Both the position numbers and the translations under genes were made by a program. A model generated the notes under the pieces. It was not told where the DNA came from, did not search any database, and worked only from the letters and a program-made list of their open reading frames with translations. From sequence record MZ501090: a DNA stretch of 51,474 bases; one strand, given 5' to 3'. Shown piece after piece: positions 7,760 to 23,939 of this stretch (its first letter is position 1; every line of letters starts with the position of its first letter). The stretch is from Escherichia phage KarlJaspers.

Positions 7760-8176
7760 ATGGTTGATGAATTTTTCACTGACGCAGAAATCACGCAGCA
7801 AATCGTGAAATTAGCTCCACCGATGAAACAGATTGATCCAGATTTAATGGTGGCATGGATTGATCTGGCAAAGGAATTTGTTTGCAAGAAGCGGTTTAAA
7901 GAATCATATCCAAAAGCGGTTGCCCTTTATACGTTGCACCTTATGACGCTTGACGGAGCTATGAAGCAAGAAGGGGAAAGCGTAGAGAGTTACTCGCGGC
8001 GCGTGGCGTCATTTTCCCTGACTGGTGAATTTAGTCAGACATTTGATCGCGTGTCAGGCGATTCAAGCGGAAAAGAGATTAGACAAACTCCGTGGGGCAA
8101 AATGTATGAGACGTTAAATAGAAAAAAAGGCGGTGGATTTGGCCTTGTGACTGGATTTCGGAGGCGCTGCAAATGA
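7760..8176 (+). CDS. head-tail connector/completion protein (putative)
   Basis: 138 aa ORF with GGAGG RBS between head and tail genes. Confidence 0.35.
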
Positions 8177-8544
8177 ACTATAACGAGATCGCAAGAATGG
8201 CAACCGAAGGAATTAACTTCTTTAGTGATGGCAACGGTGAGTTTAAGTGCATAACGCAGCGCGGAAGCGTTGAAATCATCGGAGGCGAAGAAGTAGAAAA
8301 GCCAGAGATTAGTGTAATGATTAAGGGTTTAATTAGATCCCCCAAAGTCAGAGAGGTTGACGGCGAGACAATACGAGTAACCGATAAGTTGGGAGTTTTT
8401 AACAATAAAGTTGAAATTAAGAACGGGTATCATATTGATGTTGATGGTGAATTATATGTTGTAGTTGAAGCAAGACCAATCAGACAAACCAATGTCACTG
8501 TTGCTTATCGGCCTATTTTGAGAAGGATTTCTGTACATGGCTAA
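8173..8544 (+). CDS. head-tail joining protein (putative)
   Basis: 123 aa, start overlaps previous stop (translational coupling). Confidence 0.35.
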
Positions 8545-8980
8545 AAACTACACGATAAGGGAATTTCACGGCAACATTGATGCGTGGATAAACGCCGTTG
8601 ATAATGGCCTGAAAGATTGCGTTGAGTTGTTCGCCGAAAAAGTGCATACAGATCTTGTTAAGCGTTCTCCGGTTGATACTGGTCGTTACCGTGCAAACTG
8701 GCAGGTAACAGCAAACAAGCCGCCATTGTATGCGCTTAACCAGTACGATAAGCACGGAGACAAAACGATCGCGGAAGGCAAGCGAGCCATATACGCGATT
8801 TTACGAGGTGGCGGCGCAGTAAGAGCCATTTATTTTTCTAACATGCTTATTTATGCTAACGCGCTTGAGTACGGTCATTCAAAACAAGCGCCAGCGGGTG
8901 TGCTTGGGGTTGTAGCGGTTAAGTTGAGATCTTATATGGCTGAAGCAATAAAAGAGTCGAGGGCTAAAAATGCACTATGA
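8537..8980 (+). CDS. tail completion protein (putative)
   Basis: 147 aa, overlapping coupled ORF in head-tail joining block. Confidence 0.35.
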   Translation: MAKNYTIREFHGNIDAWINAVDNGLKDCVELFAEKVHTDLVKRSPVDTGRYRANWQVTANKPPLYALNQYDKHGDKTIAEGKRAIYAILRGGGAVRAIYFSNMLIYANALEYGHSKQAPAGVLGVVAVKLRSYMAEAIKESRAKNAL

Positions 8981-9368
8981 ATTAATGCTATCGGCGCGTA
9001 AGGCGCTGGCGACTGAATACGAAAGCAGATTCATGATCGCTTATGAAAACGTAGAGTTTACGCCACCTGGTGACGGTTCGCCGTGGTTGAAGTTTGACTA
9101 TGCCGAAGTTGACACAGAATACTTGTCATTGGATCGCAAATGCGTTTCTTATATCGGAATGATTCAGGTTGGTATTGTGTTTCCACCAGGTTACGGAACT
9201 GACAGGCCGCGCGTTCTAGCTAAAGAGATTGCGCAATTCTTTTACGATGGTAAAATGCTGGAGCATGGTTATATATATGAGGGTGCAAGAGTTCACAAGC
9301 CGCTCAAGAGTGAAAGCGGTTGGATTCTCCCAATAAGGTTTTATGTTCGAATTGAAACAAAGGAGTAA
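8970..9368 (+). CDS. tail terminator-like protein (putative)
   Basis: 132 aa, coupled ORF immediately upstream of major tail gene. Confidence 0.35.
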   Translation: MHYELMLSARKALATEYESRFMIAYENVEFTPPGDGSPWLKFDYAEVDTEYLSLDRKCVSYIGMIQVGIVFPPGYGTDRPRVLAKEIAQFFYDGKMLEHGYIYEGARVHKPLKSESGWILPIRFYVRIETKE

Positions 9369-9373
9369 AAATT

Positions 9374-10036
9374 ATGCATTTACCAAATGGATCGCAAATT
9401 TTCGTTGAGAGCAATCGCGGAAGCGAAATCCAAGCAACAGCAGTGTCAAACGCCAAAGATCCTGTTTTCACTGTTGCATCTGGCGGCACTGCGTACAAGA
9501 AAGGTGATTATGTGATCATCACTGCGTCTTCTTGGGGTAAGCTGATTGATCGTGTTATGCGTGTAAAGGCTAACGGTGAAGAAACAAGCGTAACTCTTGA
9601 AGGCGTAGATACTACTGATCAGAACGTTTTCCCGTCTGGCGGTACTGCATCTTTTGCCAAAATTGATGCATGGACTGAGATCCCTTGCGTTCAGGATTTG
9701 TCGCAGGACGGCGGCGAACAGCAATACTACACTTATCAGTGTTTGGCAGACGATCAGGAACAGCAGTTACCTACCTATAAGAGCGCAGTTTCTCTGACAT
9801 ACACTTTTGCTCACGAATACGATAACGCGATCTATCCGCTATTGCGTTCAGCAGATGAATCAGGCGCTGTAACGGCGCTTCGTATGTATGTACCAAAAGC
9901 AAAAGAGATGCGTTGCTGGGCTGGTGTACTTTCGTTTAACGAAATCCCGCAGACCACAGTTAACGAAATGGAAACTGTTTCCCTTTCTGTATCACTGAAA
10001 GGTCGATTCACCTTTCTACCTTCTCAAGTAGAGTAA
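9374..10036 (+). CDS. major tail protein (putative)
   Basis: 220 aa; AGGAG RBS; followed by very strong terminator and then chaperone/tape-measure genes. Confidence 0.5.
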   Translation: MHLPNGSQIFVESNRGSEIQATAVSNAKDPVFTVASGGTAYKKGDYVIITASSWGKLIDRVMRVKANGEETSVTLEGVDTTDQNVFPSGGTASFAKIDAWTEIPCVQDLSQDGGEQQYYTYQCLADDQEQQLPTYKSAVSLTYTFAHEYDNAIYPLLRSADESGAVTALRMYVPKAKEMRCWAGVLSFNEIPQTTVNEMETVSLSVSLKGRFTFLPSQVE

Positions 10037-10040
10037 TAAC

Positions 10041-10066
10041 AAGGGGCGTTGCGCCCCTTTTTTTGT
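10041..10066 (+). terminator. rho-independent terminator
   Basis: AAGGGGCG-ttg-CGCCCCTT hairpin followed by TTTTTTT. Confidence 0.85.
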
Positions 10067-10102
10067 TACTGTACAATCATGATACACGATTCATAATCAA
10101 TT

Positions 10103-10122
10103 CTTTTAACAAAAAGTGCTAT
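10103..10122 (-). promoter_or_regulatory. conserved intergenic motif copy, reverse orientation
   Basis: CTTTTAACAAAAAGTGCTAT on + strand directly before RBS of 10136 gene. Confidence 0.5.
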
Positions 10123-10135
10123 CAAGGAGAAAGAA

Positions 10136-10453
10136 ATGTCAAAAATGAAATTGACGATTGGGCCGCTTCCTGACTTTAAATTACCAGTGAAATTTGCAAT
10201 GCCTAACGGAGAAGATCAAACAATTATCTTCACAGTTCGCCACCGCAAAACAAGTGAGATTCACGAGCGCTACACGTCAGATACTCCAATGAGCGATGTT
10301 GAAATGATCACCTTCCTTGCTTCTGGTTGGAATCTTGATGATGAATTTAACGAAGAAAATATTAAACAGCTTCTTGATTACTACCCAGCAACAGCAATCG
10401 GATTAACTAGCGCATACATGAAAGCGCTTGCGGGGCAGCGAGTAAAAAACTAA
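10136..10453 (+). CDS. tail assembly chaperone (G-like)
   Basis: 105 aa ORF directly upstream of tape measure; ends at slippery A_AAA_AAC. Confidence 0.6.
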   Translation: MSKMKLTIGPLPDFKLPVKFAMPNGEDQTIIFTVRHRKTSEIHERYTSDTPMSDVEMITFLASGWNLDDEFNEENIKQLLDYYPATAIGLTSAYMKALAGQRVKN

Positions 10454-10764
10454 AAAGGGCGGTTTACCTGTTTTATCAGAAACCGCCGACAGATGCAGAG
10501 CTTGAGGCTGTTGGCCTTACAAGGGCAGACTATGAAGGAGAAGATCCGCCAGAGGTTATATTTGATGAAAGCATGATGCAATCATGGGATATATTTTGCG
10601 CAATGCAAACGCAATGGAGATGTTCTGGCGGTGGAGCTTACGGATTTGATTATAATGTCTTGCCTATGCTTTTTGAGATTTACAAGGTTGAGGATCGCGA
10701 GATGGCGCTAAACGACTTGCGAATCATGGAGCAAAAAGCACTTGAAATGATGCATTCAAAATAA
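10136..10764 (+). CDS. tail assembly chaperone GT-like fusion via -1 frameshift
   Basis: -1 frame stays open from 10450 to stop at 10764; slippery heptamer 10444-10450; hairpin 7 nt downstream. Confidence 0.5.
10444..10487 (+). other. putative programmed -1 ribosomal frameshift site (slippery heptamer + stem-loop)
   Basis: A_AAA_AAC in G frame, then GGCGGTTT-14 nt loop-AAACCGCC stem. Confidence 0.5.
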
Positions 10765-10786
10765 GCGCCTACGGGCGCTTTTTTAT
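10764..10786 (+). terminator. rho-independent terminator
   Basis: AGCGCC-tacg-GGCGCT hairpin followed by TTTTTT. Confidence 0.7.
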
Positions 10787-10803
10787 TACCTGGAGGATTA
10801 ATA

Positions 10804-13476
10804 ATGTCAGAACAATACGCAGGCTTGACGCTTGGGGTTGATGTATCTCAACTCAACAATGCTGTAAAGTCTTTGCAGCAATTCAAGAAGGCAAACGACG
10901 ACGCAAAGGGAAGCGTTGAGAGTTTTGTTGATTCAGAGGTTGTTGCAAGACAAAGAGCCAAACAACTGGCTGAGGAATTGGCAAAGCAGAAGCAAGAATT
11001 TAAAGCAATTCAGTCGGCAATAGATCCGACAGCAAGCAAAATGGATAAGTTGCGCCAGGCTGCGACACAGCTTGATGCACTATGGAAAAAAGGAATTGTG
11101 CCGGATGATACATTCTTTGAATTAGGTTCAATTCTTGAGACACAGCAAAACAAGCTGATCGCAACGAAAAAGGCGCTAACAGAAGAAGGCCGAGCGGCGA
11201 TTGAGGAAGCAAAGAATAAAGCCAGGGCAGAGGCTGAGGCCAGAAAGTTCATTGCGGCATTACAGGCACAAGCAGACGCAGCAGAAAAGACAAAATCAGA
11301 ACTTGTTGAAATGAGAGCCGCACAACTTGGAGTTAGTGCGGAGGCCGCGCCATTTATTGCAAAAATGAAGGAGCAGGAAAAACAAGCCTCAAAACTTGGC
11401 GTTTCTATGGGGCAGTACAAGCAAGCAATGGCGCAATTGCCAATGCAGATCACTGACGTTGTTACTTCTCTTGCTTCAGGAATGCCAGTATGGATGATCG
11501 CAATCCAGCAGGGCGGGCAGATCAAGGACTCATTCGGCGGTGTTGCTAATACTTTTAAAGCGCTAATGACATTTGTCACGCCGCTAAGTGTTGGAATGAC
11601 GGCGCTGACTGGTGCTCTTGGGTATGCAGCATATAACGCTTACAAAGCCAACGCACAACTGAAGGAGATCACAAAAACCGTTCAGGATGTAACAGGTCTT
11701 TCCGGTGAGTTTGCAGAGCGGATCGCAACTGGAATCCAGGCGCTATCTGACAAGACAGGAGAGAGCGCAGACAATATCGCAAAGGCTTACATAAGCACTA
11801 AGGATGGAGCAAGCGAGGCTATACAAAAACTCGTCGATGTTGGATTTACCTATGACGAAGCAAAGGCAAAAGTAAACGAATACAAAAACGCATCAAGTTT
11901 TGTAAGTCTTAACAATGAAATTGCTGATCACAAAAACAAAGTTCTTGAGCTTGGCGATTCATGGTATGCGGTCTTAAAAGCAAAACGTGATTATGCTTCA
12001 CCGTCCGGCGGGCTGTTGGGGAAAGAGCTTGGTTATGTGAATCCAATGCTGCAATTTGCGAAGAACACCTATGAGGATATAGGAAAGATCGTAAAAGATG
12101 CGAATAAGGATATGGCGGAACGAGCAGCACGCATCGACAGAGAAAACCTTTCCTTAAACAGAGTTCGAGCGGCGCAAGAGGCTTTAAACAAAGCCATAGA
12201 GGATCAGAAGAACGTAGCAAGGACAGCAGACGAAGAGTTGAAAAAACGAGCGGCTGAGAACGTGGAGTTCAGGAGAAAAGAGCTTGAAGAGGCGAAGAAG
12301 GCGCAGCAGCAAAAGGAAAAAGTTGGTGGAGTTGTAAAAGCACCAACAGAGCAGCTTGATAAGGAGCTATATGTTCTCAAAGCGCAACTTGAAACTCTGA
12401 AAGAGCACCGAACTGTAAATGATGTTATTTCACGCCAGAGGCAATCTTTGTGGAGTATTGAAAAGCAGATCCAGATCCTGGAGGAAGCGCAAAGCAAACG
12501 TAAGCTGACAAAAGCGGAACAGGCGTTACTAAACGAGCAAAAAACAGTTCTTGCCATGGCAAAAGAAAAGGCCGAGATAGGCGATCAGATTGTTTTGCAA
12601 CAGAGAAAGAACAAGCAATACCAGGAAGGGCTAAAGTTCATTCAGCAAACTTCAGATGCCATTGATGCTATGAACTTGCGACAGTCTGGAGCTACAGATC
12701 TGCAAATCCAGCGAGAGCTTGAATTGAAAAAGTTGCGAACTGATTATGTTGCTGGCGGAGGTAGTATCGACGATGAAATTTATCAGCAGATGGAAGAAAA
12801 GCTGAAGGAGTATTACGCCACTGAGGATCAGCTAAGAAATAACTGGATTGCAGGAGCAAAAAACGCATGGGAGGTTTACGGACAAGATGCAATGGATATG
12901 TACGGAAACGTGCAAGATATTGCAAGCGAGGCGCTCAACGGTCTAACCAACCAAATGGCTACATTCCTTGCAACAGGCAAGGCAAACTTTAAGAGCTTCG
13001 CAACGTCAATCATCCAAATGATTATCCAGATGATCACGAAGATGGTTATCTTTAATGCCATATCTGGTGCGATTGGCGGTGACACTTGGACGATTGGAAG
13101 CCTTCTTAAAAATGTTGGATTTGCAACTGGTGGATACACTGGCGACGGCGGGAAGTATGAGCCAGCAGGTGTTGTCCATAAAGGCGAGTTTGTCATGACG
13201 AAGGAGGCCACGAAGCGGATCGGAGTTGGAAATCTTTACAAAATGATGCGCGGTTATGCAAATGGCGGCGTTGTTGGCGGAACTTCATACACTGGCGGCG
13301 GAGTTTCATCTGGAGCAACAAATCTTAATATTGGTGGGATCAGCGTTGATATTAACAACGGAAACGATCCGAAAGGGTTGGAGACTGGCGTAAAAATGAT
13401 TTTCACTGATATGATTAAGCGTTCCTGTACGCAGGGTGGGGAAGTTTACGAATTTGTTATGTCTAAGCGGGGGTGA
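10804..13476 (+). CDS. tail tape measure protein
   Basis: 890 aa; long coiled-coil-like Ala/Lys/Glu/Gln-rich region, hydrophobic segments, Gly-rich C-terminus; follows G/GT pair. Confidence 0.9.
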
Positions 13477-23486: not shown

Positions 23487-23939
23487 ATGCATATTATTAC
23501 TGGTGAGATCCGAAAAGAGCCGCGAGTAAAGCAAATGCCTAACGGCAGCACACTTTATGTAGTTGAACTTCCAGAGCGATACAAAGATAAAGATGGAAAC
23601 TGGCAATATACAAACTACAGTTTCTTTTTTAATGCTAAAACAGAAGGTATTAAGGGTTGGTATGATGAGGCGTTCCAGGTTGGCAAGGTTATTTCTGTAT
23701 CTTGCGACACTCTGCGCATTGAAACGCGAGAATACAACGGAAAGATGTATTCAAGTTTAATGCCAGGAGGATTTGCAAATCTTATCTTCAGTCAGCGCGG
23801 GGAAAGCCAGCAACAATATCAGCAGCGAACGCAATGGGGATGGGGCCAACCACAACAACAGAATCAACCGCAACAACCGCAACAGCCAAGACAAAGCAAT
23901 CAGCCACCTATGGATTTTGACGACGACATCCCTTTTTGA
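23487..23939 (+). CDS. ssb: single-stranded DNA-binding protein
   Basis: 150 aa; Gln/Pro-rich linker; acidic C-terminal tail DFDDDIPF characteristic of SSB. Confidence 0.85.
   Translation: MHIITGEIRKEPRVKQMPNGSTLYVVELPERYKDKDGNWQYTNYSFFFNAKTEGIKGWYDEAFQVGKVISVSCDTLRIETREYNGKMYSSLMPGGFANLIFSQRGESQQQYQQRTQWGWGQPQQQNQPQQPQQPRQSNQPPMDFDDDIPF

Follow-up and report, generated by a model that had tools for sequence, protein, structure and literature searches.

How is the second of two overlapping tail genes of Escherichia phage KarlJaspers (sequence record MZ501090) translated, when its reading frame opens without a start codon? The two open reading frames (ORFs) lie at 10136–10764 on the plus strand of a 51,474-nt stretch (hereafter, the window). 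An original prediction, made from the letters of this stretch, had read them as the tail assembly chaperone pair G and GT of long-tailed phages, linked by a canonical −1 frameshift cassette. Our analysis leads to largely the same answer: these are the tail assembly chaperone genes of a T1-like siphovirus, and the pair is very probably expressed through programmed −1 frameshifting of the ribosome. The proposed membership in the G/GT arrangement is borne out by the gene order, the Pfam matches of both halves, a −1 relation between T and G in 105 out of 108 related loci and a conserved slip site.

The G and T reading frames

The zero-frame product is a G-like tail assembly (tape measure) chaperone of 105 amino acids (aa) and 12.0 kDa, encoded at 10136–10453 (+). 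A Shine–Dalgarno sequence, AAGGAG (10124–10129, +), can be read 6 nt before its start codon, and its homologues in related phages are annotated as tape measure chaperones. The 3′ end of G reads CGA GTA AAA AAC TAA. The slippery heptamer A_AAA_AAC (10444–10450, +) ends on the last two sense codons of the gene, is in frame in the X_XXY_YYZ register and forms the candidate −1 shift site, just where the original prediction had placed it. The TAA stop codon (10451–10453, +) lies directly 3′ of the heptamer and may contribute to the shift. The −1 frame had been described as open from 10450 to 10764; it does end with a stop at 10762–10764, but it is open already from 10411. Neither ATG nor GTG nor TTG occurs in this frame between 10411 and 10572, leaving the 41 codons after the slip site free of starts. 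The T segment (10450–10764, +; 104 codons plus stop) is predicted to be translated only as the C-terminal half of GT. Joining 10136–10450 to 10450–10764 yields a predicted fusion spanning 10136–10764 (+), with the junction ...AGQRVKN-LKRAVYLFYQKPP... and a length of 209 aa (105 + 104). A fusion of about 23 kDa had been foreseen; the computed mass is 24.1 kDa.

Both halves of the predicted fusion belong to known families. PF08748 (Phage_TAC_4) covers residues 1–105, the full length of G, with an E-value of 1.8e-30 and 106.2 bits against a gathering cut-off of 21.1, and PF08809 (DUF1799) covers residues 127–206 with an E-value of 3.5e-12 and 46.8 bits against a cut-off of 26. Furthermore, the first half of the 213-position profile phrog_17368 aligns with G and the second half with T. 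Since a single profile spans both proteins, fused G–T proteins of this kind have already been deposited. A tblastn search with the fusion found 1143 phage records, 1076 of which cover at least 80% of the query; among the matches listed, the query is covered in two pieces, as a change of frame predicts. A phmmer search of PDB sequences with the GT fusion returned chance matches only (E-values of at least 0.4), and no sequence relation to a solved chaperone structure emerged from it.

In the absence of recoding, the downstream ORF would be translated alone from its first ATG, at 10573, as a protein of 63 aa (7.5 kDa), and the heptamer would be a coincidence. Most GenBank records of close relatives do present the ORF in this way, and separate short coding sequences (CDSs) without a join are annotated in JakobBernoulli, JLBYU09, Henu8 and T1. 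Moreover, AAAAAAC is present at chance level in the genome: the window contains 20 copies against 21.9 expected, and without such enrichment the motif count alone proves nothing. Yet DUF1799 homology begins 20 residues before this ATG, and initiation there would remove that part of the match. The 41 codons upstream of it are conserved as protein, with variability concentrated in third codon positions from the slip site on. Across the 42 nt that follow the G stop, columns at codon positions 1, 2 and 3 of the −1 frame have entropies of 0.78, 0.80 and 1.48, respectively, and this frame is therefore coding from the slip site onward. Just after that site, the peptide LKRAVYL.YQ is conserved throughout the family. 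The annotated starts are scattered among the relatives (+120, +48, +9 and +3 nt after the G stop) or missing, and hence there is no conserved start, whereas the slip site is fixed at one position across the family. An independent ribosome binding site or start for the downstream ORF, which the original prediction itself had named as an argument against frameshifting, was searched for, but there is no start before 10573 and no Shine–Dalgarno sequence precedes that ATG. Taken together, independent translation of T is highly improbable.

We also asked how often comparable sites arise by chance. The 67 long ORFs of the window (~14,840 codons) contain 43 in-frame X_XXY_YYZ heptamers, and the chance of finding one anywhere in the 13-codon G/T overlap is about 4%. 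Only two of the 43 precede more than 100 open −1 codons, namely, the G/T site and a site at 8122. The latter, A_AAA_AAA at 8122–8128 (+) in ORF 7760–8176, is located 15 codons before the stop, and the 138 open −1 codons that follow it are the frame of the next gene (8173–8544, ATGA overlap). We rejected this second candidate as most likely a chance occurrence, given that the T1 equivalent has no slippery sequence and a different overlap. Another in-frame heptamer, C_CCT_TTT (23930–23936, +), directly precedes the stop of ORF 23487–23939 in a geometry resembling that of the G/T site; the 42 open −1 codons behind it are not unusual by chance.

Conservation of the slip site

For the comparison, we gathered 111 loci, drawn from phages in GenBank, from IMG/VR and from two genome contigs. 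Homologues of G and T were sought in 110 loci plus the window, and both were found in 108 sequences, representing 69 distinct contexts with G identity down to 22–40%. The genome collection contributed only two loci, consistent with virulent phages rather than prophages. Exceptions to the −1 relation comprise five loci (three contexts), all with obvious indels.

Each of the 56 distinct −1 contexts has its slip site at the last two sense codons of G, with the stop directly behind it. A full X_XXY_YYZ heptamer is found in 51 of them, whereas the other five have a site of the X_XXY type only. A_AAA_AAC is the most widespread, with 44 distinct contexts including T1, Rtp and Dhillonvirus, followed by G_GGA_AAC with six (Vibrio phage Marilyn, Ralstonia phage Dina and metagenomic contigs) and A_AAG_GGT with one (locus L022, WaterSpirit). 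The X_XXY-only sites are A_AAG_GTC in three contexts (the L070–L076 group), A_AAA_GTT in Shelby (Webervirus) and A_AAG_CCC in L109, one context each. Most revealing is the first base of the heptamer, which occupies a silent third codon position and matches in every one of the 56 contexts: it is the A of GTA, GCA, ACA or GAA before AAA/AAG, and the G of ACG, CGG, TTG or GAG before GGA. In the window phage, GTA accounts for only 19% of Val codons. Such matching of a silent base reflects selection on the nucleotide sequence and not on the protein. The retention of a slip site at one exact position in dozens of diverged relatives is far beyond chance.

The same variants bear on slippage of RNA polymerase, in which an extra A in the A6 run (10444–10449) would yield the junction ...VKK-LKR.... 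Six consecutive A residues are indeed present, and a transcript with one additional A would encode a G–T fusion of the same size. However, relatives with G_GGA_AAC, A_AAG_GGT or A_AAG_GTC keep the two-frame layout with runs no longer than 3–4 bases, and the conserved heptamer register together with the silent matching first base are properties of a ribosomal site. Efficient transcriptional slippage in E. coli takes runs of about 8–9 or more, which also counts against this explanation. We consider it exceedingly improbable.

Several records in the locus set deserve separate mention. Shigella phage 2019SD1 (MT360681; L007 1808–1815, same contig as L035) has A5 instead of A6 at the slip site (GTAAAAACTAA), which extends G by 17 codons in the wrong frame and leaves T in the +1 frame. 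The shorter run probably stems from a sequencing error in a homopolymer, though it falls exactly at the recoding site. In Salmonella phage 36 (KR296690; L032, L098), the homologues of G and T are interrupted by frame breaks and annotated as several small ORFs with implausible names (portal protein, minor tail fiber), and the record looks like a low-quality assembly. Finally, T1-like G/T cassettes with G identity of 47–51% are found on two contigs attributed to unrelated bacteria, L109 (Fibrobacter sp. metagenome-assembled genome, JABUUR010000187) and L110 (Nitratidesulfovibrio liaohensis, NZ_VSMK01000220). The L110 contig, at 46.7 kb, is about the size of a whole phage genome. Both are probably phage contigs binned or co-assembled with host data.

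Mode of slippage and proposed function

In the programmed frameshift that we propose, most ribosomes would read G to its TAA codon and release the 12-kDa chaperone. A minority, with Lys-tRNA on AAA and Asn-tRNA on AAC, would slip one base backward on A_AAA_AAC and continue with CTA AAA AGG GCG in the −1 frame to 10764, producing the 209-aa GT protein with the junction ...RVKN-LKRAV.... Pausing of the ribosome at a hairpin 7 nt downstream, perhaps together with slow termination at the neighbouring stop codon, would raise the rate of slippage on the heptamer, which is intrinsically weak in E. coli. By analogy with lambda, the coat around the tape measure protein may consist of many copies of G and few of GT, the T domain of the latter may recruit the tail tube protein, and both G and GT would be absent from the finished virion. 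The presumed binding of G to the tape measure protein and of the T domain to the major tail protein is likewise transferred from lambda (PMC5009743).

The same GT product could also result from a single slip of the P-site peptidyl-tRNA, with the A site empty or occupied by TAA (a ‘shifty stop’), which would make the stop codon a part of the signal. The invariant position of the stop, directly after the slip site in 56 out of 56 contexts, is in keeping with such a mechanism. Furthermore, in the five contexts that preserve only X_XXY (A_AAG_GTC, A_AAA_GTT and A_AAG_CCC), the second tRNA is unable to re-pair, suggesting that single-tRNA slippage operates at least in these lineages; A_AAG is known to promote shifting by itself in E. 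coli, and shifty stops are a recognized phenomenon (PMC5009743). On the other hand, 51 of the 56 contexts have the full heptamer, and the switch from A_AAA_AAC to G_GGA_AAC preserves AAC, pointing to selection on both codons. In addition, a lone slip of Asn-tRNA from AAC to AAA does not need the first four bases of the heptamer to be conserved, yet they are. As an account of the window site, a single-tRNA slip is therefore unlikely, and tandem slippage on A_AAA_AAC remains the mode that we favour.

The downstream hairpin

The original prediction of an 8-bp stem starting 7 nt downstream of the heptamer was confirmed. In the folded hairpin (10458–10488, +), GGCGGTTT (10458–10465) pairs with AAACCGCC (10481–10488) after a spacer at 10451–10457, and three inner pairs, which had not been noted before, form within the loop between CTG (10468–70) and CAG (10477–79). 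By itself, the hairpin folds with −13.5 kcal/mol, and a 55-nt segment reaches −15.1 kcal/mol (z = −2.5 against dinucleotide shuffles). We compared this stability with that of synonymous recodings, in which the first 17 codons of T were shuffled using the phage's own codon usage with the first two codons fixed. Just 0.1% of these sequences equalled the window hairpin in stability (p = 0.001), and none of 1000 reached the real stability in each of four other lineages, represented by T1, L012, L023 and Vibrio phage Marilyn. Stems of different sequence occupy the same spot elsewhere: Marilyn has GGTCGGG/CCCGACC over a different peptide but with the same 7-nt spacing, and Dhillonvirus has GGCGGCG/CGCCGCC.

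Several observations nevertheless weigh against the proposed mechanism, some of them concerning this hairpin. It is present in only 29 out of 57 distinct contexts, being absent from Rtp-like phages, Webervirus, L013, L061, L092, L094, L110 and others. It is also missing from L022, L040 and L068, although their peptide, LKRAVYLFYQKPPTDAE, is identical to that of the window. Stem covariation was considered as a proof of conserved structure and rejected, as it amounts to 0.149 versus 0.158 in the slide −1 control. Of the points unrelated to the hairpin, the five X_XXY-only contexts are incapable of tandem re-pairing, and the tandem model may thus not cover the whole family. The literature searched contained no protein-level evidence for GT in the window phage or in any T1-like phage. 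Finally, shifting in E. coli is reported to be much weaker on A_AAA_AAC than on A_AAA_AAG (PMC5009743), and the efficiency may be low. This weakness fits, however, a low, lambda-like ratio of GT to G, which is roughly 1:30 in lambda (PMC5009743), as well as the need for a stimulator. We expect GT to be produced with an efficiency of a few percent and not of about 50%.

The patchy distribution raises the possibility that the 10458–10488 stem is an inherited by-product of the R-A-V...K-P-P codons in one clade and does not stimulate frameshifting. Its absence from many lineages, including the three with the same peptide, would be in keeping with this, as would the pair counts, which reveal little covariation beyond the slid controls; across 56 distinct sequences, 69.6% of cells in the stem are paired, compared to 64.5% in shuffles. 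The lineages bearing the hairpin are also related, and common ancestry inflates the shuffle statistics. By contrast, the rarity of equally stable recodings in the window and the four other lineages, and the different stems of Marilyn and Dhillonvirus over the same spot, are not what a by-product would lead one to expect. The A_AAG-type contexts are all devoid of the hairpin, as expected if the hairpin compensates for a weak heptamer. Moreover, known −1 stimulators in dnaX-type signals use a spacing of 6–7 nt, which counts against an incidental stem. Overall, a by-product without a stimulatory role is a serious possibility, although the less probable one. We conclude that the hairpin is genuine and under selection in the Tempevirinae and Tunavirinae lineages. 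It plausibly acts as a frameshift stimulator, though one that can be dispensed with and does not define the cassette; at most, it is an optional enhancer. The stem of the original prediction is thus significant in the window lineage, but as an element of the cassette it is not conserved across the family.

None of the seven contexts with sites other than A_AAA_AAC or G_GGA_AAC carries the hairpin. It is tempting to speculate that the frameshift signal is modular and turns over within the chaperone family. The slip site would be confined to the last two sense codons and the stop would belong to the signal. Lineages would alternate between a heptamer weak in E. coli (A_AAA_AAC or G_GGA_AAC) combined with a hairpin 6–7 nt downstream and intrinsically shifty A_AAG-type sites from which the second slippery codon and the hairpin have been lost. 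We regard this scheme as rather doubtful in its present form, and Rtp-like phages, which have A_AAA_AAC without a hairpin, argue against a strict rule of this kind. If true, the family would provide a natural series for learning how the stoichiometry of G and GT is tuned.

Other potential signals around the site were also considered. A scan of 10000–10900 against Rfam gave sub-threshold chance matches only. A pseudoknot candidate between the loop CUGU and a downstream ACAG amounts to 4 bp and is lost in L010. Upstream, the G-rich GCGGGG at 10430–10435 was evaluated as a Shine–Dalgarno-like stimulator and set aside, because it reflects conserved Ala-Gly codons and varies between relatives; we make no claim for it. 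In Escherichia phage vB_EcoS_G29-2 (MK373798), a single G-to-T substitution (L004 1583–1585, equivalent to 10456–10458 of the window) has made an ATG out of the T-frame codon AGG that lies 3 nt past the G stop. This ATG, chosen by the depositors as the start of a 102-aa ORF, is found in one context only, and the stem is intact.

Genomic context

Over the 1.5 kb around the frameshift site, the window shares 96–98% identity with many Escherichia and Shigella phages that belong to Hanrivervirus (Drexlerviridae, Tempevirinae), including vB_EcoD_Fulano1, JLBYU09, aaroes and pSf-1. Because of this identity, the window phage can be assigned to the T1-like virulent siphoviruses of this genus.

The tail module has a lambda-like order, with the tail tube gene followed by G, T in the −1 frame, the tape measure gene and then homologues of lambda M, L, K and I. 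A tail terminator gene (8970–9368; PF13554) precedes the major tail (tail tube) protein gene at 9374–10036 (+), which matches PF08813 (Phage_tail_3, 2.6e-64) and phrog_584 (major tail protein) and, as the upstream neighbour, fixes the position of G/GT. The downstream neighbour is the tape measure protein gene at 10804–13476 (+), identified by the Pfam families TMP_2 (5.4e-35) and Tape_meas_lam_C (6.5e-22) (PF06791, PF09718). Its product is the presumed client of G and GT.

A terminator scan produced five hits in the G/T region against 0.9 expected, and strong hairpins with T runs bracket the G/T cassette. One such hairpin resembling an intrinsic terminator lies between the tail tube gene and G (10041–10066, +), and another follows T and precedes the tape measure gene (10763–10786, +). 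Terminators are annotated at the equivalent of the first position in T1 and G29-2, and at the equivalent of the second in T1, G29-2, Stevie and Shelby. This layout suggests a stepwise attenuation of transcription from the tail tube gene to the chaperones to the tape measure gene, and the flanking terminators probably lower the expression of G and T relative to that of the tail tube gene.

Consequences for annotation

The correct annotation of the locus is a joined CDS consisting of 10136–10450 plus 10450–10764. In most deposited genomes of Hanrivervirus and in many of other Drexlerviridae, including T1, the second gene is called as a truncated ORF of 55–102 aa or omitted. For example, the T part is annotated inconsistently in JakobBernoulli, JLBYU09, Henu8, damhaus, JK16 and T1 (L001–L003, L015, L017 and L019), being given as an ORF of 55–65 aa, as a ‘hypothetical protein’ or not at all. 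In RefSeq, the name ‘tail length tape measure protein’ is given to G as well as T, evidently carried over from PHROG. The biological weight of the finding is small, as it adds one more instance of the conserved G/GT frameshift, and its practical value lies in annotation. The family comparison brings together slip-site variants from a single fixed position as a clean dataset, and the turnover of slip-site type and hairpin across the family is a modest side result.

Comparison with known systems

The feature is the conserved tail assembly frameshift of double-stranded DNA phages, for which lambda G/GT is the paradigm (Xu, Hendrix and Duda 2004). This frameshift is already known: a G–T frameshift product has been stated for T1-like phages (PMC4319613), a guide to phage annotation lists GpG/GpGT as a standard case (PMC8785237), and joined CDSs are annotated within Drexlerviridae. 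At the sequence level, the window displays every character by which such pairs are recognized, namely, two ORFs sited between the tail tube and tape measure genes, a second ORF, in the −1 frame, that overlaps the end of the first and lacks both a start and a ribosome binding site, an in-frame slippery sequence in the overlap conserved among relatives, and a region 3′ of the slip site that evolves as protein-coding in the new frame.

The window shares with lambda (Levin, Hendrix and Casjens 1993; Xu, Hendrix and Duda 2004, 2013, 2014; cited through PMC5009743) the overlapping ORF pair between the major tail and tape measure genes, the second ORF in the −1 frame without its own start codon, an X_XXY_YYZ heptamer close to the 3′ end of G, homologues of M, L, K and I as neighbours and an expected large excess of G over GT. 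The two systems differ in their protein families, with Phage_TAC_4 and DUF1799 in the window and families of its own for G and T in lambda, between which sequence similarity is undetectable. Moreover, the heptamer is A_AAA_AAC in the window and G_GGA_AAG in lambda, the window slip site abuts the stop codon, unlike that of lambda, and a downstream hairpin is found in the window lineage. The lambda frameshift is not known to need a downstream structure.

E. coli dnaX, with A_AAA_AAG, an upstream Shine–Dalgarno-like element and a downstream stem-loop, resembles the window in its A-rich heptamer, the use of Lys-tRNA, the host and a stable stem-loop a few nucleotides downstream. The window, in contrast, has no clear conserved upstream element of this type, and its expected efficiency is a few percent versus about 50% in dnaX. 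Furthermore, its heptamer ends with C and not G, which reportedly makes it far less prone to shifting in E. coli (PMC5009743).

The closest counterparts are found within Drexlerviridae itself. Klebsiella phage Shelby (MK931445, Webervirus) has homologous proteins, the same gene order and an annotated joined −1 CDS, but its site is GCA AAA GTT TAA, of the X_XXY-only type, and it lacks the hairpin. Citrobacter phage Stevie (KM236241, Tlsvirus; Tempevirinae, L045) also has homologous proteins, the same gene order and an annotated joined −1 CDS, and in this phage both the GTA AAA AAC TAA site and the GGCGGTTT/AAACCGCC stem are identical to those of the window. The Hanrivervirus records inspected differ from Stevie and Shelby in being annotated without the join that these two phages already carry.

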